Shown one piece after another: positions 5,876 through 42,069 of a DNA stretch of 64,000 bases. The stretch is from Candidatus Poriferisocius sp. Its GTDB lineage: Bacteria > Actinomycetota > Acidimicrobiia > Acidimicrobiales > Bin134. Position 1 is the stretch's first letter; every line of letters begins with the position of its first letter. The position numbers and the translations under genes were made by a program. Where the stretch lies: contig NZ_OZ241977.1 of the NCBI RefSeq assembly GCF_965204145.1, positions 3,487,811 to 3,551,810 on the forward strand. Direction: 5' to 3'. Below the pieces are notes generated by a model, which did not search any database, was not told where the DNA came from, and saw only the letters and a program-made list of their open reading frames with translations.

Positions 5876-6673
5876 TCACGAAACGTAGGGCAACGACAGA
5901 ACCACCCGCTCGCCCAACTCGCGGTCGCCGGCGAGGGTCACCAGGCTGGCGGCGAGCGCTCCAGCGGGGTCGGTGCGACCGCAGCACAGCGCGTTGTAGG
6001 TGTCCACATCGGTGTGCACGGTTGCGGTGGGGTTGTCGGCCGGGGCCGAGGGCTTGGCCCGGCCGTCGGTCACTGCCACACCCCGGGGACCGTCGGCATC
6101 GCCGTCGATGGCGAACACCACCGTGCTGCCCTCGGGGGCGCCGGCCTTCTTGCCCACCACAAAACCCATGTTGCGGGCATGCCAGTCCAAGCAGTGCTGG
6201 ACCACCGGGCCGCTCAGGTGCCCGGGGATGCCCAGCGCCCGGCGCATGTCCTGTTCGTGAGCCCAGCAGTCGAACACCCGGATGTGCATGAACGTCCGGT
6301 ACGGGGCGTCGCCGATGGGGGTGAAGCCCACCTCGTCCCATTTCTCTGCGGGCAGGTTCCGCAGCATCTCCACCCGCCGGGCGCAGATGTCGCTCATCTC
6401 GGCCAGCACTTCGGCACCGGGCCGGGTACGGCGGGGGGCGATCTGGCCCTCGTTGAAGGCGGCGATGCCCTCGAGCCCGCCTTCGGTGGCGGGCGGCTCG
6501 GGCTTCTCGCCGGCCAGCATCAGCTCAAGGCCGACGATGTGGCTCACCTGATCGCGCACCGACCATCCGGGGCACTCGGTGGGCGTATCCCACTGCTCAT
6601 CGCTCAAATCGGCACCCAACTGGGCGATGGAATCCCAAACCGCCTCCAACAATTCAATGACCGGGTCGCTCAT
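5876..6673 (-). CDS. Maleylpyruvate-isomerase-family mycothiol-dependent enzyme (DinB/TIGR03083-like)
   Basis: The track ORF 5876-7054 was trimmed to ATG 6671-6673 (MSDPVIELLEAVWDSIAQLGADLSDEQWDTPTECPGWSVRDQVSHI...). The upstream part of the ORF is Arg/Gly/Pro junk that overlaps the crotonase gene. An ATGA start/stop overlap joins it to the upstream gene. Confidence 0.75.
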   Translation of the reverse strand: MSDPVIELLEAVWDSIAQLGADLSDEQWDTPTECPGWSVRDQVSHIVGLELMLAGEKPEPPATEGGLEGIAAFNEGQIAPRRTRPGAEVLAEMSDICARRVEMLRNLPAEKWDEVGFTPIGDAPYRTFMHIRVFDCWAHEQDMRRALGIPGHLSGPVVQHCLDWHARNMGFVVGKKAGAPEGSTVVFAIDGDADGPRGVAVTDGRAKPSAPADNPTATVHTDVDTYNALCCGRTDPAGALAASLVTLAGDRELGERVVLSLPYVS

Positions 6674-7428
6674 GTCGCTAGTCCTACCGTGAATGATCTG
6701 GTGTCGTCGTCGAGCATCTGATGGACGGATTCGGCCACCGGGCCTCGGATGATGCGCCGGGTGGCGGCAAAGGCCTTGATCGAGAGGCTCTCGGCCAGCC
6801 CGGCGGCTTCGGCCATTGCCGCCTCCTCCAGCTCGTCTTCGGGCACCACCCAGTCCAAGTAGCCGACGTCGGTGGCTGAGGCGGGCGAGTAGAGCCGGGC
6901 GAGAAGGACAGAGGAGTGGACATGGCGGGGCGAGAGCCGGTCTCGGGCCAGCGTGACCACCGACGTGGGCAGCACCATGCCGATGGCCGTTTCGTTGAGC
7001 CCGATCTTGGCGGGCACGTCGGCGCCGATGCGCACATCGCAGCACATGAGCCATATGGCTCCGGCGGCGAAGGCGTGACCGGTGCAGGCGGCCACCACGG
7101 GGATGGGGAACTCGTACAGCCGGACGAACAAGTCCATGCCCGCCCGGAACAGGTTGCTGGCCGCTTCGGGGCCCGACTGCATCACCTTGAGATCGAATCC
7201 GGCGGTGAACTTGCCCGGTCGGCCCATCAGCACCACCGCTTTGGCCTCGCTTTCGGCCCGGTCGAGCGACTCTTGCAGGGCGGCGATCACCTCGTGGGAA
7301 AGCACATTCACTTTGCCGTCGTCCACCCGGACGAGGGCGACGTCGCCGGTCAGCTCATAGCTGACTGATGGACTGCTTGTGGCTGACATGGGCGATGAGA
7401 ATATCGCGACGGTGCTCGGTAGCATCAT
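6670..7428 (-). CDS. Enoyl-CoA hydratase/isomerase (crotonase) family protein
   Basis: Crotonase-like stretches are VALVRVDDGKVNVL, GKFTAGFDLK and ACTGHAFAAGAIWLMCCD. A start at ATG 7389 (MSATSSPSV...) is equally plausible. Confidence 0.8.
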   Translation of the reverse strand: MMLPSTVAIFSSPMSATSSPSVSYELTGDVALVRVDDGKVNVLSHEVIAALQESLDRAESEAKAVVLMGRPGKFTAGFDLKVMQSGPEAASNLFRAGMDLFVRLYEFPIPVVAACTGHAFAAGAIWLMCCDVRIGADVPAKIGLNETAIGMVLPTSVVTLARDRLSPRHVHSSVLLARLYSPASATDVGYLDWVVPEDELEEAAMAEAAGLAESLSIKAFAATRRIIRGPVAESVHQMLDDDTRSFTVGLAT

Positions 7429-8375
7429 CGGCTGTGCCAGCAGCCATTTCCGCCCAAGGGCTGCGCCGAACCTACGGCGACGTAGTGGCGGTTGACTCCC
7501 TCGACCTGAATGTCGCCGAGGGGGAGGTGTACGGGTTTCTGGGGCCCAACGGCGCGGGCAAATCCACAGTGGTGCGGATGCTGTGCACGCTGGCGTCGAT
7601 GACCGCCGGGTCGGCCTCGGTGGCCGGCTACGACGTGGCCAACCAGGGCGATCTGGTGCGCCTGAGCATCGGCGTGGCCCTCCAAGACGCCGCTCTCGAC
7701 GGCAAGCTCACCGGCCGAGAGACGCTGACCCTGCAAGGCCGCTACTACGGCCTGCACCGGGACGCCGTCATCACCCGCATCGAGGAGTTGGCTCCCCTGC
7801 TGGAGATGGATGCCATCGACCGGCGGGTGTCCACCTACTCGGGGGGAATGAAACGCCGTTTGGATTTGGCCGCCGCGCTGATGCACAACCCCGAGGTGCT
7901 GTTTCTCGACGAGCCCACCACCGGCCTCGACCCCATCAGCCGGGCAGTGGTGTGGGAGCAGATCCGGAGCTTGAACCGAGACCTGGGCATGACCATCTTC
8001 CTCACCACCCAGTACTTGGAGGAGGCCGACGCGCTGACCCACCGGGTGGGCATCTTGGACCAGGGCCGTCTGGTGGCCGAGGGCACGCCCGATGAGCTCA
8101 AGCGAACGGTGGGCTCCGACGTGGTGGTGGCCCGGGTGGCCGGCAATCCCGACGTGGCCGCCCAGGCCATCGGGCAAGTGCCGGGCATCAGTCATATCGA
8201 GGTGTACGGCAACGAGGTGAGCGCGGCCACCAGCGACGGGGCCTCGGTGATCAGCCCGGTGGCGGTGGCCTTGTCGGCTGCTGGGGTCGAGGTGACCGAT
8301 CTGTCGATCCATCCCACCACGCTCGACGACGTGTTCTTGGAGCTCACCGGCGCTCGGATCGAGGTTGAGGAATGA
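7368..8375 (+). CDS. ABC transporter ATP-binding protein (DrrA/ABC-2 exporter type)
   Basis: Walker A GPNGAGKST, signature YSGGMKRRL, Walker B VLFLDEPTTGLD. The start is uncertain (ATG 7368, ATG 7395 or GTG 7434). Confidence 0.9.
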   Translation: MDCLWLTWAMRISRRCSVASSAVPAAISAQGLRRTYGDVVAVDSLDLNVAEGEVYGFLGPNGAGKSTVVRMLCTLASMTAGSASVAGYDVANQGDLVRLSIGVALQDAALDGKLTGRETLTLQGRYYGLHRDAVITRIEELAPLLEMDAIDRRVSTYSGGMKRRLDLAAALMHNPEVLFLDEPTTGLDPISRAVVWEQIRSLNRDLGMTIFLTTQYLEEADALTHRVGILDQGRLVAEGTPDELKRTVGSDVVVARVAGNPDVAAQAIGQVPGISHIEVYGNEVSAATSDGASVISPVAVALSAAGVEVTDLSIHPTTLDDVFLELTGARIEVEE

Positions 8376-9190
8376 GCGAGACCGCTCTCACCAGCCCGGC
8401 CGGAGGCGAGGTCATCCGGGCTCGCCCGTCGGGGTTTTTCGGCGACATGGCCTCGGTGGCCAGCCGGGCCTTGCGGCTGCTGCCCCGAGACCTGGAGGCG
8501 ATCATCCCCGCCATGCTGATCCCCCTGTTCTTTTTGTTGGTGACCATCGGGGCCATCCAGAACCTGGCCGGCGACGTGGTCTCCGACATCGATTACAAGG
8601 CCTTCCAGCTGCCGGTGGCCATCATGACCGCGGTGACCGGCATGTCCCGGGCCAACTCGCTGGTGATCGACATCTCCGAGGGCTACTTCGACCGTCTCCT
8701 GATGACTCCCGTGAACCGCTACGCCCTGCTGTTGGGGCTCATGGTGGCCGACTTCACGCTGTTCGTGGTCATGGCCATACCGGTGATCGCAGTTGGATTC
8801 GCCATCGGGGTGAGCTTCGGCGCCACCGGGGTGGTGGGCCTGGTGGTGTTCGTGCTGTTCGGAGCTTTGTGGGGGCTGGCCTTCACCGGTTTTCCCTATG
8901 CCATCGCGCTGCGCACCGGGAATCCCGCGGCGGTGAACTCCAGCTTCCTACTGTTCTTCCCCTTCATGTTCTTGACCACTGCCTGGGTGAGCCGCGAGGT
9001 GATGACCGACTGGCTGGCCGCCATCACCTGGTTCAACCCCATGACCTACGCCCTGGAGGGAATGCGCTCGCTGTTCTCCGGCTGGGACGGCTGGGCGCTG
9101 GGTCGGGCGTTGCTGGCCATCGGCGTGGTGGGGCTTTTGGCCCAATCACTGGCCTTCCGGTCACTGCGGGGCCGCATCCGCCGCGGCTGA
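8372..9190 (+). CDS. ABC-2 type transporter permease
   Basis: 272-aa, about 6 TM segments. An ATGA overlap with the preceding ATPase gene indicates an operon. Confidence 0.85.
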   Translation: MSETALTSPAGGEVIRARPSGFFGDMASVASRALRLLPRDLEAIIPAMLIPLFFLLVTIGAIQNLAGDVVSDIDYKAFQLPVAIMTAVTGMSRANSLVIDISEGYFDRLLMTPVNRYALLLGLMVADFTLFVVMAIPVIAVGFAIGVSFGATGVVGLVVFVLFGALWGLAFTGFPYAIALRTGNPAAVNSSFLLFFPFMFLTTAWVSREVMTDWLAAITWFNPMTYALEGMRSLFSGWDGWALGRALLAIGVVGLLAQSLAFRSLRGRIRRG

Positions 9191-22815: not shown

Positions 22816-23652
22816 ATGTCGGTCCTGCACGCCATATTGCTGGGCATCGCCCAGGGGCTGACCGAGTTCCTGCCGGTGTCGTCCAGCGGGCACCTCCAGA
22901 TCATTCCCTGGCTGGCTGAGTGGGATGATTTCGAGGGCCGAGACGACCTCAAGAAGGCATTCGACGTGGCTCTCCACTTGGGCACGCTGGTCGGGTTGGT
23001 GGCCTGCCTTCGCCGAGAAGTATGGGCACTGGTGCGTGACGGCATCGCCGCTGTTGTCAGCCGTCGAGGCCCGATGACTGATGAGGGTCGGCTGGCGTGG
23101 CTCTTGGTGCTGGCCACCGTGCCGGCCGCCGCCGTGGGGGTGGGACTGCGGTCGGTGATCGACGAGGCCGACGACGAGGTGTGGCTCACCGCGGTGATGC
23201 TGGCAGTGTTCGGCGTGCTGTTGTGGTGGGCTGACCGGCGCCAGGGGCGGCGAGAAACCAGTGCCGTCGGGGTGCGCGACGCCGTGCTGCTGGGGCTGGC
23301 CCAGGCCTGCTCTCTCCAGCCGGGAGTGTCGCGGTCGGGAGTGATCATCACCGCGGGGCGACTGCTCAGCTTCGACCGGGAGGCGGCGGCCCGCCTGGCC
23401 ATGCTGATGAGCGTGCCGGTGATCGCCGGTGCCGCGGTGTACCAGTTCATCGACATCGGCGGATGGGGGGGCATTCCCGCCGATGCCCGAGCCGGGTTCG
23501 CGTGGGGTACCGCAGCGTCGGCGGTCACCGGTTTCGCCGCGGTCAAAGGGCTGCTGGCCCTGGTGCGCACCCGCAGCTTCGGCCCGTTCGCGGTGTACCG
23601 GGTGTTGGTGGCCCTGCTGGTGCTCAGCCTCATAGCGGCTTCGGTGCGCTAA
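22816..23652 (+). CDS. uppP: Undecaprenyl-diphosphate phosphatase
   Basis: GLTEFLPVSSSGHL and SRSGVIITAG motifs of the BacA/UppP family. 278 aa, multi-TM. Confidence 0.92.
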   Translation: MSVLHAILLGIAQGLTEFLPVSSSGHLQIIPWLAEWDDFEGRDDLKKAFDVALHLGTLVGLVACLRREVWALVRDGIAAVVSRRGPMTDEGRLAWLLVLATVPAAAVGVGLRSVIDEADDEVWLTAVMLAVFGVLLWWADRRQGRRETSAVGVRDAVLLGLAQACSLQPGVSRSGVIITAGRLLSFDREAAARLAMLMSVPVIAGAAVYQFIDIGGWGGIPADARAGFAWGTAASAVTGFAAVKGLLALVRTRSFGPFAVYRVLVALLVLSLIAASVR

Positions 23653-24290: not shown

Positions 24291-24660
24291 CGGCGCGCCT
24301 CCGCCATGGAAGAAATAGGGGAAGCACGGCCCAGGTTAGCGGCTGAGTGGTGGCGTTTGGAACACACCAGAGAGATTGCCGAATCATGGTTCGGTTGTGG
24401 CGGCTTGGCGTTGGCGCGGTGTGTTCCGGTTGGCCGCGAGGTGGTCCGCCTGGTGGCCGGTTTTCTGGTTTGGAGTGGTGTTCCCGGTTTTTTTCTCAGG
24501 GTTGCCCGGCCTAGCCGCGGTTGTTGCCGGCCGGGGTGTTTTGCCTGGTTGACGCTAGTTTCGCCGGCTTCTCAGCGGGACTGGGTCAGCGGTGGGGGCG
24601 CGGTGGGGTGTGGTTGGGGCTTGACTCCGGGGGGGGTGCGGGGCTGTAGCCCAGTGCGGC

Positions 24661-24906
24661 ATGAGGCGTCGTCTTGTTGTTCTGGCGGTTTGTGTTTGCG
24701 TGCTCGGGGCGGGTCTTGCTCTGGCTGGCTCTGGCTCGGAGCCGGTTGCGGAGGCCCATGATTACACCGTGCCGGTGAAGAGGAAGAGTGTGCGAGGAAA
24801 CATGGAGCGAATCAGTCAACGTCCGAATGAAACCACTCGCAAGCTGGCAACAACTCTATATAGTACGGGCATACAATCGTGCAACCGGAGAGACCATAGT
24901 GTTTGA
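24661..24906 (+). CDS. Sec-type signal-peptide ORF (81 aa) that overlaps the next ORF by 119 nt in another frame. It is possibly the frameshifted 5' part of that gene.
   Basis: MRRRLVVLAVCVCVLGAGLALAGSGSEPVAEA is a classic n-h-c signal peptide in GC-rich DNA. After about 24780 the ORF continues into AT-rich DNA as a hydrophilic, low-complexity sequence. Confidence 0.35.
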   Translation: MRRRLVVLAVCVCVLGAGLALAGSGSEPVAEAHDYTVPVKRKSVRGNMERISQRPNETTRKLATTLYSTGIQSCNRRDHSV

Positions 24907-25252
24907 TGGGATTAACTATACCGTACCGGTCATCGCTGCTGCTTTAGCATGGTTGGCTGGCGGATCTGCACTTGTTGCTTCGGTTAAGGTTGTTGCTACA
25001 CTTGTAGCTGCTTGGGCTCTAGCAGAGACTGGCGTAATCATCTATCGGGAGCAGTCTGGGCAAGACTGGGCGAGATTGTTCCCTGAACAAGCAGCAGTGC
25101 ATACTAATGGCGACAAATACTGTATGCCCGGCACTGATACACACAACAACAAGAAATGGAAGAGGCACCAGGAGTCAGTTACGAGCACTGATCTCGTAGC
25201 TGGTTACAAGACGGAAACAGTTGCCTCGATTAGTTTCTGTAAGGAGGCCTAG
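24788..25252 (+). CDS. Islet ORF1: unknown small membrane protein (about 154 aa, 2 predicted TM, Cys-containing C-terminal tail ...GYKTETVASISFCKEA)
   Basis: Longest ORF in the AT-rich islet. Hydrophobic helices are VPVIAAALAWLAGGSALVASV and VVATLVAAWALAETGVIIY. The tail is conserved with ORF2 at the protein level but not the nucleotide level. Start (GTG 24788) is uncertain. Confidence 0.6.
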   Translation: MCEETWSESVNVRMKPLASWQQLYIVRAYNRATGETIVFDGINYTVPVIAAALAWLAGGSALVASVKVVATLVAAWALAETGVIIYREQSGQDWARLFPEQAAVHTNGDKYCMPGTDTHNNKKWKRHQESVTSTDLVAGYKTETVASISFCKEA

Positions 25253-25256
25253 TTCT

Positions 25257-25544
25257 GTGGTCGACGACATCTGCAAGACGAAGAAGACCGCTTCGCTGAA
25301 TGGTGCTGAGAAGATCTTGGTTTGCATCATTTCGACCATTGTGGTGTTAAGCACCGTTGGATTCTTGCTGGTTTCTCCATACAAATACTACTTGTTAGGG
25401 TTCAACTACGTTCTTGTCGCAATAGGTATCAATTTAGCAATAAAAATAAGATTGAAGCGCCGACGAGAGAGCAGATCAAATGAAAGCGTTGATGGCTACA
25501 AGACACGAACTCAGTCAACTGTCAGCTATTGCAAAGAAACTTAG
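25257..25544 (+). CDS. Islet ORF2: unknown small 2-TM protein (95 aa) with tail ...GYKTRTQSTVSYCKET
   Basis: GTG 25257 lies 9 nt downstream of a perfect AAGGAGG (25241-25247). Two hydrophobic helices are present, and the C-terminal 28 aa are paralogous to the ORF1 tail. Confidence 0.65.
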   Translation: MVDDICKTKKTASLNGAEKILVCIISTIVVLSTVGFLLVSPYKYYLLGFNYVLVAIGINLAIKIRLKRRRESRSNESVDGYKTRTQSTVSYCKET

Positions 25545-25785
25545 AACATTGAAACCACAACAGAACAAGCCTAGGGCCACCACCATAGTCCTCATCAGCA
25601 TTATCCCTGCTGGAATTGTTGGGATATTAGCTGGTATATTGGGAGAGATCCTAGAATACCCAATGTTTTACGTAGTATTTTATCCAATTGTCGTTGTGAT
25701 CGTGATAGTTGCTTCGATTTGGGCACGGGCATGGAAGCAAAGGCACTTAGTTGAAGAGCCCGCCCCACGATCTCCAGAAATATGA
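25480..25785 (+). CDS. Islet ORF3: unknown small 2-TM protein (101 aa from ATG 25480, or 79 aa from TTG 25549)
   Basis: Helices are IVLISIIPAGIVGILAGILGEIL and MFYVVFYPIVVVIVIVASIWA. An ATG 25480 start would overlap the conserved ORF2 tail by 65 nt in another frame, so the TTG 25549 start is a real alternative. Confidence 0.55.
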   Translation: MKALMATRHELSQLSAIAKKLRTLKPQQNKPRATTIVLISIIPAGIVGILAGILGEILEYPMFYVVFYPIVVVIVIVASIWARAWKQRHLVEEPAPRSPEI

Positions 25786-25800
25786 GATACGGTAGCTACT

Positions 25801-26049
25801 ATGAGTTTTGTAAAGAGGTATAAGATCTTGATGGCAACAGGAATAAAGGGATTACTGCGGACAAAGACACCGCGTTCACTCTATTTGGTTCCTGCGTCGT
25901 TTTGTTTTGGATTTATGATTCTCCGAGAATTCGTTGAGGAGAATTTAATTTACTATCCAATATTTTCAACAGTGTCTGTATTGCTTATCTTGTGGGCCTT
26001 TTGGTTCAGGAAACGCACGCTGGCTTTGGCACGCATCAATCAAACCTGA
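25801..26049 (+). CDS. Islet ORF4: unknown small 2-TM protein (82 aa)
   Basis: ATG start with strongly A/T-biased codons. Helices are LYLVPASFCFGFMIL and IYYPIFSTVSVLLILWAFWF, and both termini are basic. Confidence 0.55.
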   Translation: MSFVKRYKILMATGIKGLLRTKTPRSLYLVPASFCFGFMILREFVEENLIYYPIFSTVSVLLILWAFWFRKRTLALARINQT

Positions 26050-26165
26050 ACGTGGCTAAGCGTTAAACTCTATCGATGGTCACGACAGGTCGGTCTTGAT
26101 CGCAGGCGATGTGTTGCTCAGGGTGTCTCCGTTGAAAGCATCGGCAACTTGGGAGGTTTTGTTGG

Positions 26166-26257
26166 GATGGGTTCGGTTTGAGGGCTGTCTGCGTTGTTTT
26201 GCCGTCCTTCTCGTGGTGTAGGCGTGCGGCGCAGGCAGCTCTCAAACCGAACCCATC
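26166..26257. repeat. Long inverted repeat / stem-loop (28-bp arms 26166-26193 and 26230-26257, 36-nt loop)
   Basis: Base-by-base pairing gives 26 Watson-Crick pairs plus 2 G-T positions over 28 consecutive positions. It sits between convergent islet ORF4 and mtnP, and no U-tract follows on either strand. Confidence 0.85.
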
Positions 26258-26297
26258 ATAGCGCTATGGTGTATACGCCGTGGTCTTCGCCGCCCCT

Positions 26298-27092
26298 CTA
26301 GGGCAGGGGTGGGTCGATGTTGTTGGTTTGCGCGGAGCAGTCGGGGAGGTTGTGGGCGATGGCCCGAATGGCGCCGAAGAGAACGGCTCGCATTCGGTCG
26401 AGGTTCTGGGCGAAGAAGGCGAACACCTCATCTTGAGTGACCGGCTGGATGCGGGGATCGTCTTCCAGGCCCGCGTCGTAGTCGGTGACCAGAGCGGCGG
26501 TGGCGTAGCAGATGCCCAGTTCGGCGGCGAGGGCGGCCTCGGGATACTGAGTCATCCCCACTACGTCCCAGCCGTTGTCGCGGAACCAGCGCGACTCGGC
26601 CCGGGTGGAGAAGCGGGGGCCCGAGATCACCGTTATGGTGCCTCCGTCGTGGGCGGTCATGCCCTCGGCCCGGGCGGCCTGGAGCAGTGCCTGGCGGAGC
26701 TCATCGCAATAGGGATCGGCCAGCGAGACGTGGTTGGTGACGGTGTCGAAGTAGGTGTCGGCCCGACCCGAGGTGCGGTCGACCAGCTGATCGCACACCA
26801 CCACATCGCCGGGGGCCAGCTCGGGGCGGAGCGAGCCGCAGGCGCTGGGGCCGAAAATGGCCTGCACGCCAGCCTGGCGCAGGGCCCACAGGTTGGCCCG
26901 GTAGTTGACCTTGTGGGCCGGGAAGCGGTGGCCGGGGCCGTGCCGGGGCAGAAAGGCCACCTCGATATCGTCCACCGAGCCGATGGTGAGCGGACCCGAC
27001 GGTGGCCCGAATGCGTCGTCGCCCGGAACTTCGACTGCGTCGTCTAGCAGGGAATAGAGACCGGAGCCGCCGATGACGCCGATCTCGGGCAT
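26298..27092 (-). CDS. mtnP: S-methyl-5'-thioadenosine phosphorylase
   Basis: 264 aa. Motifs are IGVIGGSGLY, FLPRHGPGHRFPAHKVNYRAN and GMTQYPEAALA. Confidence 0.9.
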   Translation of the reverse strand: MPEIGVIGGSGLYSLLDDAVEVPGDDAFGPPSGPLTIGSVDDIEVAFLPRHGPGHRFPAHKVNYRANLWALRQAGVQAIFGPSACGSLRPELAPGDVVVCDQLVDRTSGRADTYFDTVTNHVSLADPYCDELRQALLQAARAEGMTAHDGGTITVISGPRFSTRAESRWFRDNGWDVVGMTQYPEAALAAELGICYATAALVTDYDAGLEDDPRIQPVTQDEVFAFFAQNLDRMRAVLFGAIRAIAHNLPDCSAQTNNIDPPLP

Positions 27093-31768: not shown

Positions 31769-31842
31769 GGGGCTGTAGCTCAGTTGGCTAGAGCGCCTCG
31801 TTCGCAACGAGGAGGTCGGCGGTTCGAGTCCGCTCAGCTCCA
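31769..31842 (+). tRNA. tRNA-Ala (anticodon CGC)
   Basis: Hand-folded cloverleaf: acceptor GGGGCTG/CAGCTCC with the G3:U70 Ala identity pair, anticodon arm CCTCG-TTCGCAA-CGAGG, T arm GGCGG-TTCGAGT-CCGCT. CCA is not encoded. Confidence 0.93.
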
Positions 31843-37259: not shown

Positions 37260-39035
37260 ATGAGCGAATCCGAAGCAACCGCACCAGCCGGACGGCGGGC
37301 GGCAATCTCACCGTTTCAAGCGATCTCCGCGGGCATCGTGGCCGCCGGGGCTGCGCTGGGCTTGAGCGAGATTCTGTCGGGGCTGAGCCGCAAGATCCCG
37401 TCGCTGGTGGTGTCGGTGGCCGAGGAGATCGTGGACATCACCCCCGGGTTCATTGCCCGCTGGTCCATCGACACCCTGGGCAGCGCGCAGAAGCCGGCGT
37501 TGGTTTGGGGCATCGTCATCGTGTCGATTCTGCTCGGCGCGGTGTTGGGTTGGCCGTCTCGGAAGCGCTGGTGGGTGATGCCCGCCGGACTCGTGGCGTT
37601 TGCCGTGGTTGGCGGGTGGGCCGCGGCCCGCAACCCGCTGTCCAGCGACGGTTTGGGGTGGATGTCGGGCCTGGTGTCGGGTGCCTTCGGGATCGCGGTG
37701 TTTCTGAGTCTGTATGCGCTTGCACTGGCTGCAATTCCATCGGGCGAATCCCAAGAACCTGCCAGAGAGCGGCGAGTGCCTATGGTGGGCCGGGGCCGCT
37801 TCAACGACCGGCGCCGCTTCGTCGGAGCGGTTGGCATCATGGCTGGGGCTTCGCTGGCCGGCGGCCTGCTCGGGCGATGGCTGCGGCGGCGCGACACTGT
37901 GGAAGGAGCTCGTGAGGGGGTTGCCGAGGCTCTCCAAGGACGCACAATTGCCACACCGACTGCCCGACCCACTCCGGTTCCCACTCAGCAGGCGAGGGCA
38001 GAGCCCGTGCAATCAGATGCCACCCCAGGGGCGACGCCGGAGGCCACGGCCGAGGCCGGAGCCGATCCGACGGCTGATCCCACCGCTGAGCCCACCCCCT
38101 CAGTCACAGCCGAACCGGTAGGGGAGCCCAACTTCGACTACATCGCCGGGATCGCTCCGCTCATCACTCCCAACGAAGACTTCTATCTGATCGACACCGC
38201 CCTCTCGTACCCTCAGGTGGACCCGGCGGACTGGTCGCTGCGGATTCACGGCATGGTGGACCGAGAGGTGGAGATCAGCTTCGACGAACTGCTCGACCTG
38301 GGTCTGGTTCGAGAGCAAGTGACCTTGTCATGTGTCTCCAACAGCGTGGGCGGACGCCTGGTGGGCAACGCCGAGTGGGTGGGAGTGCCGCTGGCCACCG
38401 TGTTGGACGAGGCCGGGGTGCAGCCGGGGGCCACGCAGATTGTGGGTCGCTCGGTAGATCGGTGGACCGCGGGCTTTCCCACCGAGGTGGCGCTCGACGG
38501 CAGGGTCGCCATGGTGGCCGTGCAGATGAACGGCGAGCCGCTGCCCATCTCCCACGGTTTTCCCGCCCGCCTGGTGGTGGCCGGGCTCTACGGCTACGTG
38601 TCGGCCACCAAGTGGCTGTCGGACATCGAGCTCACCACCTGGGAGGGCTTCAACGGCTACTGGATTCCCCGCGGTTGGTCCAAGGAGGGGCCGATCAAGA
38701 CCCAGTCCCGCATCGATGTGCCCCGCGTGGGCTCTGTCATCGACCCTGGACCCACGGCGATTGCCGGAGTGGCCTGGGCGCCGAGTCGGGCCATCGAAAC
38801 GGTGGAAGTTCAGGTGGACGAAGAGCCGTGGGTGGAGGCTGAGCTCAGCCGTGAGACCACCATCAACTCCTGGCGGCAGTGGATGGTGACGTGGAACGCC
38901 ACCCCCGGCCGGCACCAAGTGCGGGTGCGGGCCACCGACGGCACCAACACCACGCAGACCTCCGAGATCACCGACCCCGCCCCCGACGGCGCCACCGGCT
39001 GGCACACCATCCAAGTAAGGGCGGAGGAGGCCTGA
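37260..39035 (+). CDS. Molybdopterin-dependent (sulfite-oxidase-fold) oxidoreductase with N-terminal multi-TM domain and Pro/Thr/Ala-rich linker
   Basis: VTLSCVSNSVGG (Mo-ligand Cys context), MNGEPLPISHGFPARLVVAGLYG and an Ig-like C-terminal dimerisation region. About 6 TM helices at the N-terminus. Confidence 0.85.
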   Translation: MSESEATAPAGRRAAISPFQAISAGIVAAGAALGLSEILSGLSRKIPSLVVSVAEEIVDITPGFIARWSIDTLGSAQKPALVWGIVIVSILLGAVLGWPSRKRWWVMPAGLVAFAVVGGWAAARNPLSSDGLGWMSGLVSGAFGIAVFLSLYALALAAIPSGESQEPARERRVPMVGRGRFNDRRRFVGAVGIMAGASLAGGLLGRWLRRRDTVEGAREGVAEALQGRTIATPTARPTPVPTQQARAEPVQSDATPGATPEATAEAGADPTADPTAEPTPSVTAEPVGEPNFDYIAGIAPLITPNEDFYLIDTALSYPQVDPADWSLRIHGMVDREVEISFDELLDLGLVREQVTLSCVSNSVGGRLVGNAEWVGVPLATVLDEAGVQPGATQIVGRSVDRWTAGFPTEVALDGRVAMVAVQMNGEPLPISHGFPARLVVAGLYGYVSATKWLSDIELTTWEGFNGYWIPRGWSKEGPIKTQSRIDVPRVGSVIDPGPTAIAGVAWAPSRAIETVEVQVDEEPWVEAELSRETTINSWRQWMVTWNATPGRHQVRVRATDGTNTTQTSEITDPAPDGATGWHTIQVRAEEA

Positions 39036-39060
39036 TCCTCCTCCGTGCCTCACTTACCCG

Positions 39061-39261
39061 TCAGTCTTCGGGCTTGCTGAGTTCCTTGATGATGTGTCTG
39101 GCCAGTCGTTCGTTGATTTCTCGGTGGCGAGGTACAGGCTGATAAGCACCAGTTGCTGGATTGCGGTACCAGTCGTGTTTTGAGCCGTGCCGAACCAGGA
39201 CGGCACCTGCCGCTCGGATCCGCTTGACTAGATCAACCCGCTTCATGCCCGGGTGTGGCAA
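39061..39261 (-). CDS. hicA: HicA-family type II toxin (mRNA interferase)
   Basis: 66 aa. LVKRIRAAGAVLVRHGSKHDWYRNPATGAYQPVPRHREINERLARHIIKEL fits the HicA pattern (GSH..., P.H.EI). It follows hicB with no gap. Confidence 0.85.
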   Translation of the reverse strand: MPHPGMKRVDLVKRIRAAGAVLVRHGSKHDWYRNPATGAYQPVPRHREINERLARHIIKELSKPED

Positions 39262-39558
39262 TCATGCCAGCGTGAGATCAGTGACTCGGCGTACCCCCGG
39301 CAGTTCGCCGCTCGTCAGGTCGGTGTAGAGGTCGCGCAGATGCTGCTTGAGATCGTCCAACGTCTCTCCCTGCGTCCAATAGTCGGGGAACTCTTCCAGG
39401 TATCCGAGCCAACATTCGTCCTCTTGCCAGTAGACCATCTTCGTAGTCGTCACGTCTGCCTCTTCCTTCTGCTCGTTGGCTCGCACTTCCACACGGGCCC
39501 CCATCCCCTCGGTGTCGCCCACCAGTTCACCGTAGCTAAGGCTAACGGTACCTCCCAA
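39262..39558 (-). CDS. hicB: HicB-family antitoxin (N-domain only, UPF0150-like)
   Basis: MVYWQEDECWLGYLEEFPDYWTQGETLDDLKQHLRDLY matches the HicB/UPF0150 core. No C-terminal HTH/RHH is visible. The true start may be ATG 39438. Confidence 0.75.
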   Translation of the reverse strand: MGGTVSLSYGELVGDTEGMGARVEVRANEQKEEADVTTTKMVYWQEDECWLGYLEEFPDYWTQGETLDDLKQHLRDLYTDLTSGELPGVRRVTDLTLA

Positions 39559-39674
39559 TAGGTTGTTCCCAATCGGGAGGCCATCCCCCTACGCTTCTGG
39601 AGCAAGAAGGGTCTGTTAGCTACGACCTCCAAGCCATCAAAACGGCTACTCATGTTGATGGTCGCTGTTGGGGG

Positions 39675-41984
39675 CTAGCCCCAGTGGTCGGCTTGGTACT
39701 CGATCATGTCGTCGCCATGGAGTTGCTTTGTGGCGTTGCCGATGCGGACCCAGAACTCAGATGGGGGGCCTCCTCCCTCTGTTGCCTTGGTGAAAACAGG
39801 CTTTGCTGAGGCAGCAGCGGTGACGACGCAGACATTGCTATTCGCGTATGGCTCAAATTGGATTCGCACCGTTGCGGCGGTTGGGGCAGACAGGGTGTTG
39901 TCCAGGAGTTGACGCAAGAACAGTTCATAGCCATCTGAGTTGCCTTTGCTCCCCAGTGTCCGCATGTCGTCGCCAAGTCCGATCACATTCGCGTCGTCAT
40001 CGACCCCGATCAAGAGCTTGCCTCCTTCGGCATTGAGGAAGCCGCACACAGTCTTGGCAATGACATGCTCCATCCTTTTGTCTGGCTGGCCGGTGTGCAG
40101 GTTGAAGCGAGCGGTGGACTTGAACTCCACGGTCTGCGATTCTCCAGCCGCGATCAGGTCGACCACGGTGGAGGAGGAGTGGTCGTCGCTCTGGCCATCC
40201 CACAGGCGTTCAAAGCCATTCCGAGTCGCTCTGGCCATCAACACCCGGCGCTTCTCCAGAAAGTCTGAGTAGTCCAATTGCTCCCAGCCGACAGGGAGCG
40301 CGTGCCAATGGATCTGCCTTTGCCGCTGATCTGGGTTCAGACGGCTGGACATTGTCGGCCAGTACTCCATGGGGTCATCAGCCCCGATGTCAGAGTTGTC
40401 CGGCCAGTCCAAGAAGGCCATGTTTGCGATGGCATTGACCTGTCGAGTCTCGGTGACTCCCTTGGCATTCAAATGGGCTCTAGGAAACAGGTGATGACGC
40501 TCGACTGATCGAGGTGCACTCTCTCCAGGTTTCAGCATGTCCCTCATCTTGAGGTTGCTGAACAGAAGCTCGGCATCGAGCACGTTCAGGGCGGCCCAGT
40601 AGGCACAGAGAGCAGGGGACTTGGCTGATGAACTGTCGAGCCTGGCCGGAAGCGATACCTCCCAGTAGTCGTTTGTGAAGTTGGCCTTGATTTGCCGGTC
40701 GAGCTCGGCACAGAAAGCTTCAGGATTGTTCGGTTCCAGGGAGTTGATGCGGCCAAGGTCGGCCTCCAAGGCGGTTTCGCTTGATCCCGTATAGCGACCG
40801 GTGGTGTGGGCCATGAAGAACCATCGCGCCATCACGGTCTGAAGAGTCGAGACGCTCAGACCAAAGTCTCGACGGCCGATCAGCCAAATGACATAGCAGT
40901 AGATCAAGGCAGTATCAGATGTGATCATCCGTCGCCCTCGGAAGCCAGCAAGGGTCAGGCATTTGAGGTACTCGTGCCAGTTGGTGAGGTCCAGCACTTC
41001 GTCTTGGGCCAAGCGCAGCCGTTCGAACTGCTCATCTCGGCGAGCAGATGACACCTCTCCGGTGTTGAGGTCCTTGCCTCGTAGAAGGCTGTAAACGTGT
41101 TGTAGGCGAGCCCGGCGGAAGGCGAGGCCAACACCCGCCCGTAGGAGTTGGTCGGGGCTCGGATCAATGAACGTGTTTTTCGGCGAGGGGCCCTGTACTG
41201 AAGGGTCAACGGCGTCGCGGCTGAATCGCTCAAGCTCTCTCCGGCCTTTCTCCCAGTGAACCGACATCAATGTGAGAATGAAGTCTGCTTGGTTGAGCTG
41301 CACCCCTTCTGAGTTGATGCGCACGAAGATTTCCGCAACCTGTTCCTCGTCCGCATTCGCATTCAGTTGGATGACTTGGAAGCGAAAATCCCTGAGGTCG
41401 CGAACTCGGTCTATTCGGCCTTCTAGATCTTCTTCCTCATCCTCGGGCATTTCCTCACCTCGATTCTCGGCCAGCCTGGCCAAGAAGGCGCGCACAGTTG
41501 CCCGATAGCGGTCCTTCCATAGTTCGGTTATGTCGGGAATGAATTCGGGATCTCTTCGAATAGCCGCATCGGCGACTTCAAACGTCTCATCGGATGGCCG
41601 GAAGGCGATCTGGATCTGGCGATTCTCGAAGGACTTGGTGAGCACCCTTTGCCCGGTGAGCACCGCAAACAGGGAGGTCAGGCGTTGCTGCCCGTCAACG
41701 ATGAGTTGCTTGGCAACCCTGTCGTGCTCGCCTCCCCCAACTTGTCGGGTGCTGGTGTCGGCACCGGTTTCCCAGAAGAGCAGTGTCCCAATCGGGTATC
41801 CCCGATACATGGAGTCGAAGAGGTCGCGCACCTTGGCTGATGACCAAACAAACGGCCGCTGGATATCAGGTAGAGCAATCTCGCCGTGCCTGATCTCTTC
41901 GATCAGGTGGGTCAACGAGTAATTGGTGTCTCGGTACAGCGTCGGCGGCATGGGCCGAGAGTCTATGGGGGTGGCTCTGGTCAA
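39675..41984 (-). CDS. DUF262 (GmrSD N-domain, ParB-like) plus His-Me-finger (DUF1524-like) plus C-terminal AlbA_2/Schlafen-like domain fusion protein. Candidate modification-dependent nuclease / defence protein.
   Basis: DIQRPFVWSSAKVRDLFDSMYRGYPIGTLLFWE and IVDGQQRLTSL are the DUF262 signature (residues about 25-240). ERHHLFPRAHL...NAIANMAFLDWPDNSDIG is nuclease-like (about 495-535). ESQTVEFKSTARFNLHTGQPDKRMEHVIAKTVCGFLNAEGGKLLIGVDDDANVIGL resembles AlbA_2 (about 607-755). GC is lower than the flanks. Confidence 0.8.
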   Translation of the reverse strand: MTRATPIDSRPMPPTLYRDTNYSLTHLIEEIRHGEIALPDIQRPFVWSSAKVRDLFDSMYRGYPIGTLLFWETGADTSTRQVGGGEHDRVAKQLIVDGQQRLTSLFAVLTGQRVLTKSFENRQIQIAFRPSDETFEVADAAIRRDPEFIPDITELWKDRYRATVRAFLARLAENRGEEMPEDEEEDLEGRIDRVRDLRDFRFQVIQLNANADEEQVAEIFVRINSEGVQLNQADFILTLMSVHWEKGRRELERFSRDAVDPSVQGPSPKNTFIDPSPDQLLRAGVGLAFRRARLQHVYSLLRGKDLNTGEVSSARRDEQFERLRLAQDEVLDLTNWHEYLKCLTLAGFRGRRMITSDTALIYCYVIWLIGRRDFGLSVSTLQTVMARWFFMAHTTGRYTGSSETALEADLGRINSLEPNNPEAFCAELDRQIKANFTNDYWEVSLPARLDSSSAKSPALCAYWAALNVLDAELLFSNLKMRDMLKPGESAPRSVERHHLFPRAHLNAKGVTETRQVNAIANMAFLDWPDNSDIGADDPMEYWPTMSSRLNPDQRQRQIHWHALPVGWEQLDYSDFLEKRRVLMARATRNGFERLWDGQSDDHSSSTVVDLIAAGESQTVEFKSTARFNLHTGQPDKRMEHVIAKTVCGFLNAEGGKLLIGVDDDANVIGLGDDMRTLGSKGNSDGYELFLRQLLDNTLSAPTAATVRIQFEPYANSNVCVVTAAASAKPVFTKATEGGGPPSEFWVRIGNATKQLHGDDMIEYQADHWG

Positions 41985-42069
41985 GCGCCCCAGAAGTGGA
42001 GCGGGTGGGGGGCGGGTGAACTAGTGGCGGGTGCCACCAAGGAGGGGTGAGGAGAGTCCTTCCCTCTGG

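Follow-up and report, generated by a model that had tools for sequence, protein, structure and literature searches.

Introduction

In the WapA/WapI system of Bacillus subtilis, a large Sec-exported wall or surface protein serves as the delivery vehicle, a kind of carrier that the gene family described below would also provide, and the immunity protein of the membrane-acting tip CdiA-CT(EC93), CdiI, is a small protein with two transmembrane (TM) segments. The TspA toxin has a polymorphic C-terminal membrane-depolarising domain and is followed by strings of membrane immunity paralogues (PMC7456083, PMC9484751), and displaced C-terminal tips have been described in Rhs loci (PMC2935791). Here we analyze an islet of low guanine-plus-cytosine content (GC) in a 64,000-nt stretch (the window) of contig NZ_OZ241977.1 from Candidatus Poriferisocius sp. 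The islet lies between a cpaB-like gene and mtnP and, judging from sequence comparisons, is very probably the collapsed relic of a lineage-specific locus encoding a large secreted protein. The locus is undescribed, modular and restricted to this lineage, and the islet is its disarmed relic rather than a new system in its own right.

The host is a sponge-symbiont member of the Acidimicrobiia; its MtnP is 84-94% identical to those of 34 metagenome-assembled genomes (MAGs) of sponge-associated Acidimicrobiia. The first-pass annotation of the window had noted the islet as foreign DNA with four tandem small membrane proteins of no recognised family. Its description is accurate and its interpretation partly right.

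Similarity of the islet to a family of large secreted proteins

The islet carries four open reading frames (ORFs) on the same strand, O1 to O4, as had been stated in the first-pass annotation. They are preceded by a short coding relic (O0-N) and a junction:

24661..24784, + strand: O0-N, N-terminus relic of a large secreted-protein gene (signal peptide and first mature residues, MRRRLVVLAVCVCVLGAGLALAGSGSEPVAEAHDYT...)
24778..24787, no strand: deletion or recombination junction; a family core of ~560-1100 codons is gone
24788-25252, + strand: O1, 154 aa, GTG start
25257-25544, + strand: O2, 95 aa, GTG start
25480, 25492 or 25549 (candidate starts) to 25785, + strand: O3, 101, 97 or 78 aa
25801, 25828 or 25831 (candidate starts) to 26049, + strand: O4, 82, 73 or 72 aa

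The translation of 24661-24777 aligns with the N-terminus of the 806-aa protein of locus L083 (65% identity over 37 aa, blastp E = 7e-12) and contains the signal peptide characteristic of the family (Sec type, ending ...G-S-x-P-x-A-x-A-H-D-x-T). At the DNA level, 24669-24777 matches L083 5012-5123 (69% nucleotide identity, blastn E = 4e-5). Homology to L083 stops at 24777, and homology to the metagenomic contig L081, described below, starts at 24785. The FN3-like core of the family (...AVFKP..., TEVYAQRWEGETYK...) is missing: when the L083 and L012 proteins were compared with the window by tblastn, only the signal-peptide segment matched. The window copy has thus lost its whole core. The O1 frame is offset by +1 from the signal-peptide frame and is closed upstream by a TGA at 24776-24778. 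A programmed +1 frameshift that would link O1 to the signal peptide was rejected, there being no slippery or hungry-codon context. A YTVPV repeat found in O0 and O1 was likewise dismissed as recombination microhomology (chance p ~0.01); its O0 copy aligns with QTERV of the family.

O1 begins with R-V-C-E-E-T-W-S-E, continues with an Ala/Gly-rich hydrophobic hairpin (a single stretch of ~40 residues split by one Lys) and ends in the tail AGYKTETVASISFCKEA. These parts match the features of the family's C-terminal module, namely R-x-C-x3-W-x-E, a hydrophobic segment, Cys/Trp positions and a GY-T tail; the matches are individually weak and consistent. O1 and the L081 protein are collinear with the C-termini of the L012, L083, L087 and L092 proteins (E 0.005-0.024). 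The region before the module together with R-[TV]-C-x3-W-x-E aligns with three family members (E 0.008-0.024; hhalign P 0.008), the tail with family C-termini (E 0.005-0.2), and the whole module with a second L092 variant (E 0.005). Twelve columns of the alignment between module and family are invariant (R1, C3, W7, E9, W56, C113, W125, G140, Y141, T143, I149 and C152). We assign O1 to the C-terminal module of the family because the weak matches recur across members, keep their order and fit the adjacent N-terminal relic. O1 is only marginally similar to L012_194 and L081_179 (shuffle p 0.01-0.02). The C-x-x-x terminus was also considered as a CaaX-like motif, and this was discarded, its residues being non-aliphatic.

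A copy of O1 and O2 occurs in another metagenome, on the 2.4-kb Logan contig L081 (SRR33343634), in a context otherwise unrelated to the window. Positions 209-900 of this contig correspond to 24785-25473 of the window with 94.8% nucleotide identity over 692 bp, and the two O1 proteins are 97% identical at the amino acid level. On L081, O1 is fused in frame to upstream coding DNA of host-like composition (GC at codon positions 1/2/3, 0.64/0.56/0.83), and the drop in GC starts precisely at the border of homology with the window. The two O1 copies differ by 15 synonymous and 5 non-synonymous changes (ratio of non-synonymous to synonymous rates, dN/dS, 0.09; binomial p = 1e-6), and all four changes upstream of the first ATG are synonymous. 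O1 is under purifying selection, and its module is mobile, as this copy in a different context shows. The possibility that the ORFs have no homologues anywhere and are random AT-rich filler, which the first-pass annotation had named as what would overturn its view, does not hold for O1 and O2.

Downstream of the O1-O2 copy, L081 906-2448 encodes a Phd/YefM antitoxin and a PIN/VapC fragment of 46 aa, together with a multi-TM protein of 179 aa that has its own partial duplicate before it (71% identity over 28 aa). This segment is another mosaic of accessory fragments.

Relationship of O2, O3 and O4 to O1

O1 and O2 have a C-terminal tail of 31 residues in common (...GYKT-T.....S[FY]CKE[AT]*; blastp E = 2e-7, shuffle p ≤ 0.0005), and O3 and O4 share a hairpin (blastp E = 1e-4, shuffle p < 0.0005). 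O2 to O4 are shortened tandem paralogues of the O1 module, not members of a set of four independent genes. By the positive-inside rule they would form helical hairpins with both termini inside the cell (N-in/C-in).

O2 consists of a helical hairpin, a basic stretch and the tail DGYKTRTQSTVSYCKET, which also matches the tails of L092 proteins (E 0.012-0.029). P0002, a 73-aa protein on L081, is 88% identical to O2 over 72 aa, and dN/dS between O2 and the L081 copy is 0.83, near neutral. O3 is a hairpin-only paralogue. Its positionally homologous start is TTG 25549 (78 aa), and the public annotation places the start at ATG 25480 (101 aa). P0001 is identical to O3, the sole ORF of the four in the 15-billion-protein collection, from which O1, O2 and O4 are absent with all start codons tried; the source record likewise holds a protein entry for O3 only, so that public annotation misses three of the four ORFs. 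O4 is the last hairpin paralogue and lacks the family tail. A 112-aa low-GC ORF with two TM segments in the L092 family locus is distantly related to it (blastp E = 0.006).

The three junctions between these ORFs have an identical geometry, in which a Shine-Dalgarno (SD)-like motif is followed by 2 nt, a stop codon, 4 nt and the next start:

O1/O2 junction, + strand: AAGGAGG 25241-25247, 2 nt, TAG, 4 nt, GTG 25257; the SD of O2 is embedded in the CKEA codons of O1
O2/O3 junction, + strand: AAAGAAA (25533), 2 nt, TAG, 4 nt (AACA), TTG 25549
O3/O4 junction, + strand: AAAGAGG 25812-25818, 2 nt, TAA 25821-25823, 4 nt, TTG 25828 (or ATG 25831)
25755..25823, + strand: O3 tail relic, ...RYGSYYEFCKEV, one base behind the O3 frame, ending in YYEFCKEV (three-frame translation)

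The AAGGAGG lies 9 nt before the GTG of O2, exactly as first reported. At the third junction the tail survives in a shifted frame only, so the O3 tail is frameshifted, and this shifted-frame FCKEV* relic is preferred to an in-frame match of MSFVKRY, at the O4 N-terminus, to the tail motif. A C-run lies at 25761-25768, upstream of FCKEV*. In O2 the K-E codons are retained through synonymous changes despite the loss of the SD (AAAGAAAC at 25533-25540), which argues for protein-level constraint on its tail. Integron gene cassettes were considered for the array and rejected, as its junctions are 4-nt gaps within coding sequence and no integrase lies in the flanks.

The parent family and its intact loci

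The family comprises proteins of 806-1203 aa and is intact in a few Ca. Poriferisocius genomes and in sponge-type metagenomes. Its members are found at L083 and L084 (806 and 886 aa), L087, L012 (948 aa) and L092 (1203 aa, a JGI metagenome), and relics occur at L011 and L090. The distribution is patchy, covering ~6 of 34 related species genomes. An intact protein has a Sec signal, a weakly FN3-like core, the R-x-C-x3-W-x-E motif, a variable Gly/Ala-rich hydrophobic segment and a conserved tail, GY-T...[IV]..[FY]C[KE]. In L083 and L084 two arginines (RR) stand behind the hydrophobic segment, as in a stop-transfer anchor. The proteins of L012, L083 and L084, like O1 to O4 and the L081 protein, gave no Pfam, NCBIfam or PADLOC hits; for L012, L083 and L084 there is a sub-threshold match to fn3.

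Directly 3' of each intact gene is a membrane-protein gene, with overlapping stop and start codons. The encoded partner proteins form a separate family with an F-R-[AV]-G-G-W-E motif after the TM helices (mutual E 2e-4 to 1e-29). Comparison of L083 and L087 DNA shows 83-100% identity in the core, then 22-58%, then 82-97% again; the variable block covers the last ~110 codons of the large gene and most of the partner gene, and its L087 allele has a GC of 0.35-0.57. GC likewise declines into the C-terminal module and partner gene in L012 and L092. The C-terminal module and the downstream partner gene are thus exchanged jointly, as a low-GC cassette, among the intact relatives.

In L092 (4817-8459; JGI Ga0209543_1003977), the intact gene and its partner are followed by an ISL3-like transposase, the two-TM ORF (6413-6751) and a 5'-truncated second copy of the large gene. 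This copy bears a different C-terminal module (7968-8459), out of frame directly after TWTCTEHWSEP. Orphan or 5'-truncated tips are thus represented by the second L092 copy and by O1 of the window, along with the relics in L011 and L090. We also observed that the second L092 module is detached at the same position as O1.

The intact loci in L083, L084 and L087 sit among arylsulfatase genes (L083 1-4712 and 8690-10600, with equivalents in L084 and L087). Such surroundings are a hallmark of sponge-matrix utilisation and may indicate a surface or host-interaction role.

Composition and coding capacity of the islet

In a 200-bp profile, GC falls from 0.66-0.74 to 0.38-0.52 across 24800-26200. The lowest-GC 1400-bp segment of the 64 kb begins at 24801 (0.46; mean 0.663, sd 0.035), and the hand counts of the first-pass annotation are exact: 0.35 at 25381-25440 and 0.40 at 25861-25920, against 0.633 at 23401-23460. 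Its statement that codon usage is foreign to the host is borne out by the GC of third codon positions, 0.41-0.54 in the islet ORFs and 0.76-0.86 in flanking host genes. Kyte-Doolittle profiles place a hydrophobic hairpin with basic flanks in each of the four ORFs, again as described. Stop-free coverage of 24780-26060 on the coding strand is 98.5%, compared with a mean of 37% and a maximum of 90.5% in 2000 dinucleotide shuffles (0/2000 equal), and open-frame coverage of the islet exceeds chance.

The flanking genes, the cpaB-like gene and mtnP, are housekeeping genes. No integrase, phage gene or tRNA is attached to the islet, in line with what had been reported, the nearest tRNA being at 31769. 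Flp pilins beside the cpaB-like gene were considered and rejected (no Flp_Fap match, wrong strand, G-x4-EY spacing off).

A second GC dip (to 0.58) occurs in the window at 39000-42000. It contains an ORF on the - strand (39675-41984) encoding a 769-aa protein with GmrSD_N (E = 3e-34) and Schlafen AlbA_2 (E = 2.5e-16) domains, likely a horizontally acquired type IV restriction or defence gene.

The insertion, its borders and the surrounding hot-spot

In 27 of 31 related genomes, mtnP and the cpaB-like gene are separated by 68-121 bp (stop to start), as against ~2007 bp in the window. Comparison of this orthologous interval had been proposed in the first-pass annotation as a check on presence or absence, and it supports that part of the foreign-DNA claim which concerns an insertion. 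The other part, that of an isolated unit unrelated to the host lineage, is not supported, the islet being joined to sequences of the parent family. Alignment with empty sites puts the inserted DNA at ~24363-26297 (~1.93 kb). The insertion therefore exceeds the low-GC islet, which makes up its 3' two-thirds; the left third is host-like in GC (~0.64-0.65). This inserted DNA was not found, even in part, in any of the 80 loci compared. Its remaining features are as follows:

24363..24660, + strand: left part of the insertion, non-coding, G/T-skewed, GC 0.65, upstream of the family gene
26161..26261, no strand: long hairpin with 28-nt arms at 26166-26193 and 26230-26257, 93% complementarity (repeat search)
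26262..26297, no strand: right border, at or a few nt from the mtnP stop (CTA 26298-26300 on the + strand; empty-site alignment)

The left border lies directly 3' of GTTTGGAA (24355-24362; empty-site alignment). The left part has no codon periodicity (GC1/2/3 = 0.65/0.65/0.65), no Rfam match and no significant fold (z = -0.87). A short stretch within it, 24526-24550, is collinear with L083/L084 4869-4893, both being 125-126 nt from the start codon. A TTGAC(T/A) hexamer precedes the start codon by 33-35 nt in the window (TTGACT 24621-24626) and in L083 (4960-5003 region), which suggests a leaderless-type promoter. By eye, the -10 region reads TATTTA in L083 and a poor TGTAGC in the window, so the promoter of the relic may be degraded.

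At the right end, the RNA fold of 26040-26300 is strong (z = -6.2; no shuffle folds equally well), and a palindrome, CATAGCGCTATG (26257-26268), stands directly 3' of the ~100-nt near-perfect hairpin. The hairpin occurs once in the window and has no Rfam match. A search of 185,579 species genomes did not recover its arm, which speaks against a dispersed repeat. Its probable role is that of a terminator shielding the cassette from mtnP/cpaB transcription, with an operator or a recombination site also conceivable. An attC site at 26161-26261 was rejected because the GTT...AAC polarity (by eye) is opposite to that of attC and there is no integrase.

The uppP-cpaB-mtnP neighbourhood is a recombination hot-spot. 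In L017 (6793-7755; OX638350.1) a Gp49/HigB-like toxin and an HTH_3 antitoxin occupy the same mtnP/cpaB intergenic site, so this site repeatedly takes in small accessory modules, and L005 has a small insert there too. Between cpaB and uppP, on the other and likewise variable side of the cpaB-like gene, L027 (7638-10671; OZ220474.1) carries a low-GC pair of an N6/N4 DNA methylase and an endonuclease (companion 236 aa), and L012 a 4-kb insert with its copy of the family. In L011 (7517-12780; OZ242355.1), IS110- and IS256-type transposases lie in this same interval and cut short a family copy of the large secreted-protein gene, which ends after ...DDNFWT.

Database searches

O1 to O4 gave nothing above threshold in Pfam, PHROG, PADLOC or NCBIfam, in agreement with the first-pass annotation's placing of the proteins outside recognised families; sub-threshold matches of O3 (SLATT, CARF-TM, BacA and others) were treated as hydrophobic-composition noise. 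No match to O1 was present among PDB sequences, and no relative of it in species genomes, IMG/VR or JGI metagenomes. A protein homology search with O1, concatenated O2+O3+O4 and the 225-aa L081 protein returned no homologue; its negatives are weak because neither P0001 nor P0002 was recovered by it. When 1.84 billion representatives were searched exhaustively with HMMER, only O3 itself and the L081 copy of O2 emerged. Look-ups of the exact O3 and O4 sequences returned no record. Rfam gave nothing relevant, and promoter and terminator scans were at chance level.

Function and alternative explanations

On balance, we favour the view that the islet is the collapsed relic of a swappable surface-protein locus resembling toxin/immunity loci. 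Several features together bear the signature of such loci: the core is conserved, the tip is variable within sharp bounds and co-varies with the next gene, GC is deviant, orphan copies occur and the distribution is patchy. That the parent family has a toxin/immunity-type function is quite possible, if still short of probable. Joint swapping of module and partner and the accumulation of truncated orphans lead us to a proposal of three steps. The module would act as a membrane-inserting effector tip, by means of its Gly/Ala-rich hydrophobic hairpin, and would be carried on the secreted surface protein. Cognate small membrane proteins would then neutralise the tip inside the membrane. The window strain would have lost the delivery part and would have kept at most the protective hairpins O2 to O4, with decay under way; with delivery gone, at most these proteins could remain of use. 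An immunity-like role, which had been suggested for the small membrane proteins from the start, stays the most plausible functional reading of them, and it is rather doubtful that O2 to O4 still function in the window strain. Taken to its full extent, the proposal would describe a Sec-dependent polymorphic surface-protein system of Ca. Poriferisocius, not described before, in which the module is bracketed by conserved motifs and swapped with a membrane partner, O2 to O4 serve as self-derived decoys or immunity proteins, strain antagonism or allorecognition takes place in the sponge mesohyl, and the window strain is disarmed yet immune. This fuller picture is tentative, and we would not expect all of it to hold.

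Several observations weigh against the favoured view. The links between O1 and the family C-termini are each weak (E 0.005-0.2; hhalign probability 4.9%), and the AlphaFold model of O1 alone is too poor to use (predicted local distance difference test score, pLDDT, 39). O1 has a poor start context and does not share the reading frame of the signal peptide; as the O3 tail is also frameshifted and only O3 is annotated, the window copy may be inert. The library scans detected no toxin, pre-toxin, immunity or secretion-system domain in any component, and the L012 C-terminal variant has no clear TM segment. The extreme C-terminal tail is conserved here, whereas canonical polymorphic toxins vary to the very C-terminus. 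O2 to O4 resemble the effector module itself, not the FRAGGWE partner family, and have no similarity to the partner proteins L083_169, L087_163 and L092_216; the four units have no immunity-type gene between them.

One alternative is that the module is a membrane anchor and not a weapon, a stop-transfer segment with a cytoplasmic tail on an FN3-like sponge-matrix adhesin. The partners and O2 to O4 would then be structural or regulatory, and the variability would reflect drift, horizontal transfer and relaxed constraint. The Sec signal peptide, the weak fn3 match and repeats, the arylsulfatase genes around the L083, L084 and L087 loci, the RR behind the hydrophobic segment in L083 and L084 and the absence of a recognised toxin domain all fit an anchor, and a common cytoplasmic binding motif is suggested by the tail that O2 has in common with the large protein. 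However, a sharp swap of low-GC anchor plus partner between cores that are 83-100% identical is hard to explain without diversifying pairwise specificity, and the L012 variant has no credible TM segment to anchor it. Truncated orphans and IS (insertion sequence)-disrupted copies accumulate, the family is found in only ~6 of 34 related species genomes, and the module has moved between diverged hosts, its copies being 95% identical in nucleotide sequence, so that we consider an anchor unlikely. We judge it equally unlikely that the islet is inert debris of the hot-spot, made of gene fragments O1 to O4 that are neither expressed nor selected and whose open frames and low GC merely reflect recency. 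Decay is visible in the lost core, in O1 lying +1 out of frame behind the signal peptide with a TGA three codons upstream, in the frameshifted O3 tail and missing O4 tail, in the dN/dS of 0.83 for O2 and in the poor predicted -10 upstream of 24661 (by eye); only O3 is annotated in the source record, and further relics of the family exist in L011, L090 and L092. Against this stand four intact frames with 98.5% open coverage (0/2000 shuffles), a perfect AAGGAGG and preserved coupling of stop, 4 nt and start, and O2 tail residues kept through synonymous changes, and purifying selection on O1 implies function until recently. Debris would in any case touch present activity only and is compatible with the structural identification.

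Far behind the anchor and debris explanations ranks a self-contained foreign cassette with no relation to host-lineage genes, whether a holin/antiholin, phage-exclusion or type I toxin-antitoxin array. Small N-in/C-in hairpins with charged tails recall class II holins, the islet is rich in AT, L017 has a toxin-antitoxin pair at this very site, and O3 has very weak sub-threshold matches to two-TM effector models (SLATT, CARF-TM). The holin-like and phage-exclusion roles floated in the first-pass annotation nevertheless found no backing: the proteins match no PHROG, PADLOC or Pfam family, neither 50,697 phage records nor 72,556 plasmid records yielded a tblastn match, IMG/VR gave none either, and no lysin, integrase or antisense RNA signal was detected. 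Because the islet is physically attached to remains of a chromosomal gene family from the host lineage and shares homology with it, such a cassette is most improbable.

If the islet is the relic of a swappable locus, as we favour, what appeared to be an orphan foreign islet becomes readable as the disarmed remnant of a modular locus whose tips move between genomes, and the main interest shifts from the relic to the parent family. Should the toxin/immunity function prove true, a Sec-exported family without a recognised domain would join the polymorphic-toxin repertoire of a widespread uncultured lineage of sponge symbionts. It would offer a handle on strain competition in sponges (tip types, partner genes, orphan immunity) and would show immunity-like proteins that arose from the membrane hairpin of the effector itself. 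Should it fail, a hot-spot that collects toxin-antitoxin, restriction-modification, IS and surface-protein cassettes is still documented, along with a locus at which current annotation overlooks three of four ORFs.

Comparison with known systems

Class II holins and actinophage lysis cassettes resemble the islet in having tandem proteins of 70-100 aa with two TM segments, an N-in/C-in topology and charged C-termini. They differ in that the islet has no endolysin, prophage genes or PHROG match and its proteins are homologous to the C-terminus of a chromosomal surface protein. For a type I toxin-antitoxin system a single-TM toxin of less than ~60 aa and an overlapping antisense RNA would be expected; the islet proteins are two-helix hairpins of 72-154 aa, with no Rfam RNA and promoter and terminator scans at chance level, and an antisense transcript is still conceivable.

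Pore-forming colicins also carry an Ala/Gly-rich hydrophobic hairpin in their C-terminal domain, and protection against them is conferred by small polytopic proteins of the inner membrane, which recognise this hairpin in the bilayer. The module described here is much smaller and gave no match to a colicin channel domain in Pfam, and its locus is chromosomal, without a lysis gene or SOS-plasmid context.

Rhs and contact-dependent growth inhibition (CDI) loci share with the family a conserved core that gives way abruptly to a variable C-terminal tip with deviant GC, joint exchange of the tip and the downstream gene, and 5'-truncated orphan copies downstream. The co-variation of core and variable tip that marks polymorphic toxins (Rhs, CDI, WapA, LXG) is thus found in the relatives, and the window keeps the tip side only. 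Unlike Rhs and CDI loci, the family has no YD/Rhs repeats, VENN, PxxxxDPxGL, PT-HINT, two-partner secretion or type VI secretion system (T6SS) genes according to Pfam, NCBIfam and PADLOC. Its variable segment has conserved motifs on either side, one of them in the extreme C-terminal tail, and the tips of the window stand in series with 4-nt gaps and no interleaved immunity genes.

Close parallels also exist in TspA/TsaI of Staphylococcus aureus and the related glycine-zipper toxin EsxX. TspA and EsxX have an LXG-type N-terminus and type VII secretion, whereas the family here has a Sec signal and an FN3-like core, and TsaI is a five-TM DUF443 protein, in contrast to two-TM hairpins that would derive from the effector module. 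No sequence similarity to TspA/TsaI and no LXG or DUF443 match was found in library scans, and the likeness, which on our side is drawn from sequence, is one of logic only. It lies in a polymorphic C-terminus with one or two predicted hydrophobic helices that acts, or here would act, on the membrane (PMC7456083, PMC9484751, PMC12744356), in a protective (here putatively so) membrane-embedded protein encoded directly downstream, and in non-identical tandem membrane paralogues that are kept even when the matching toxin is gone.

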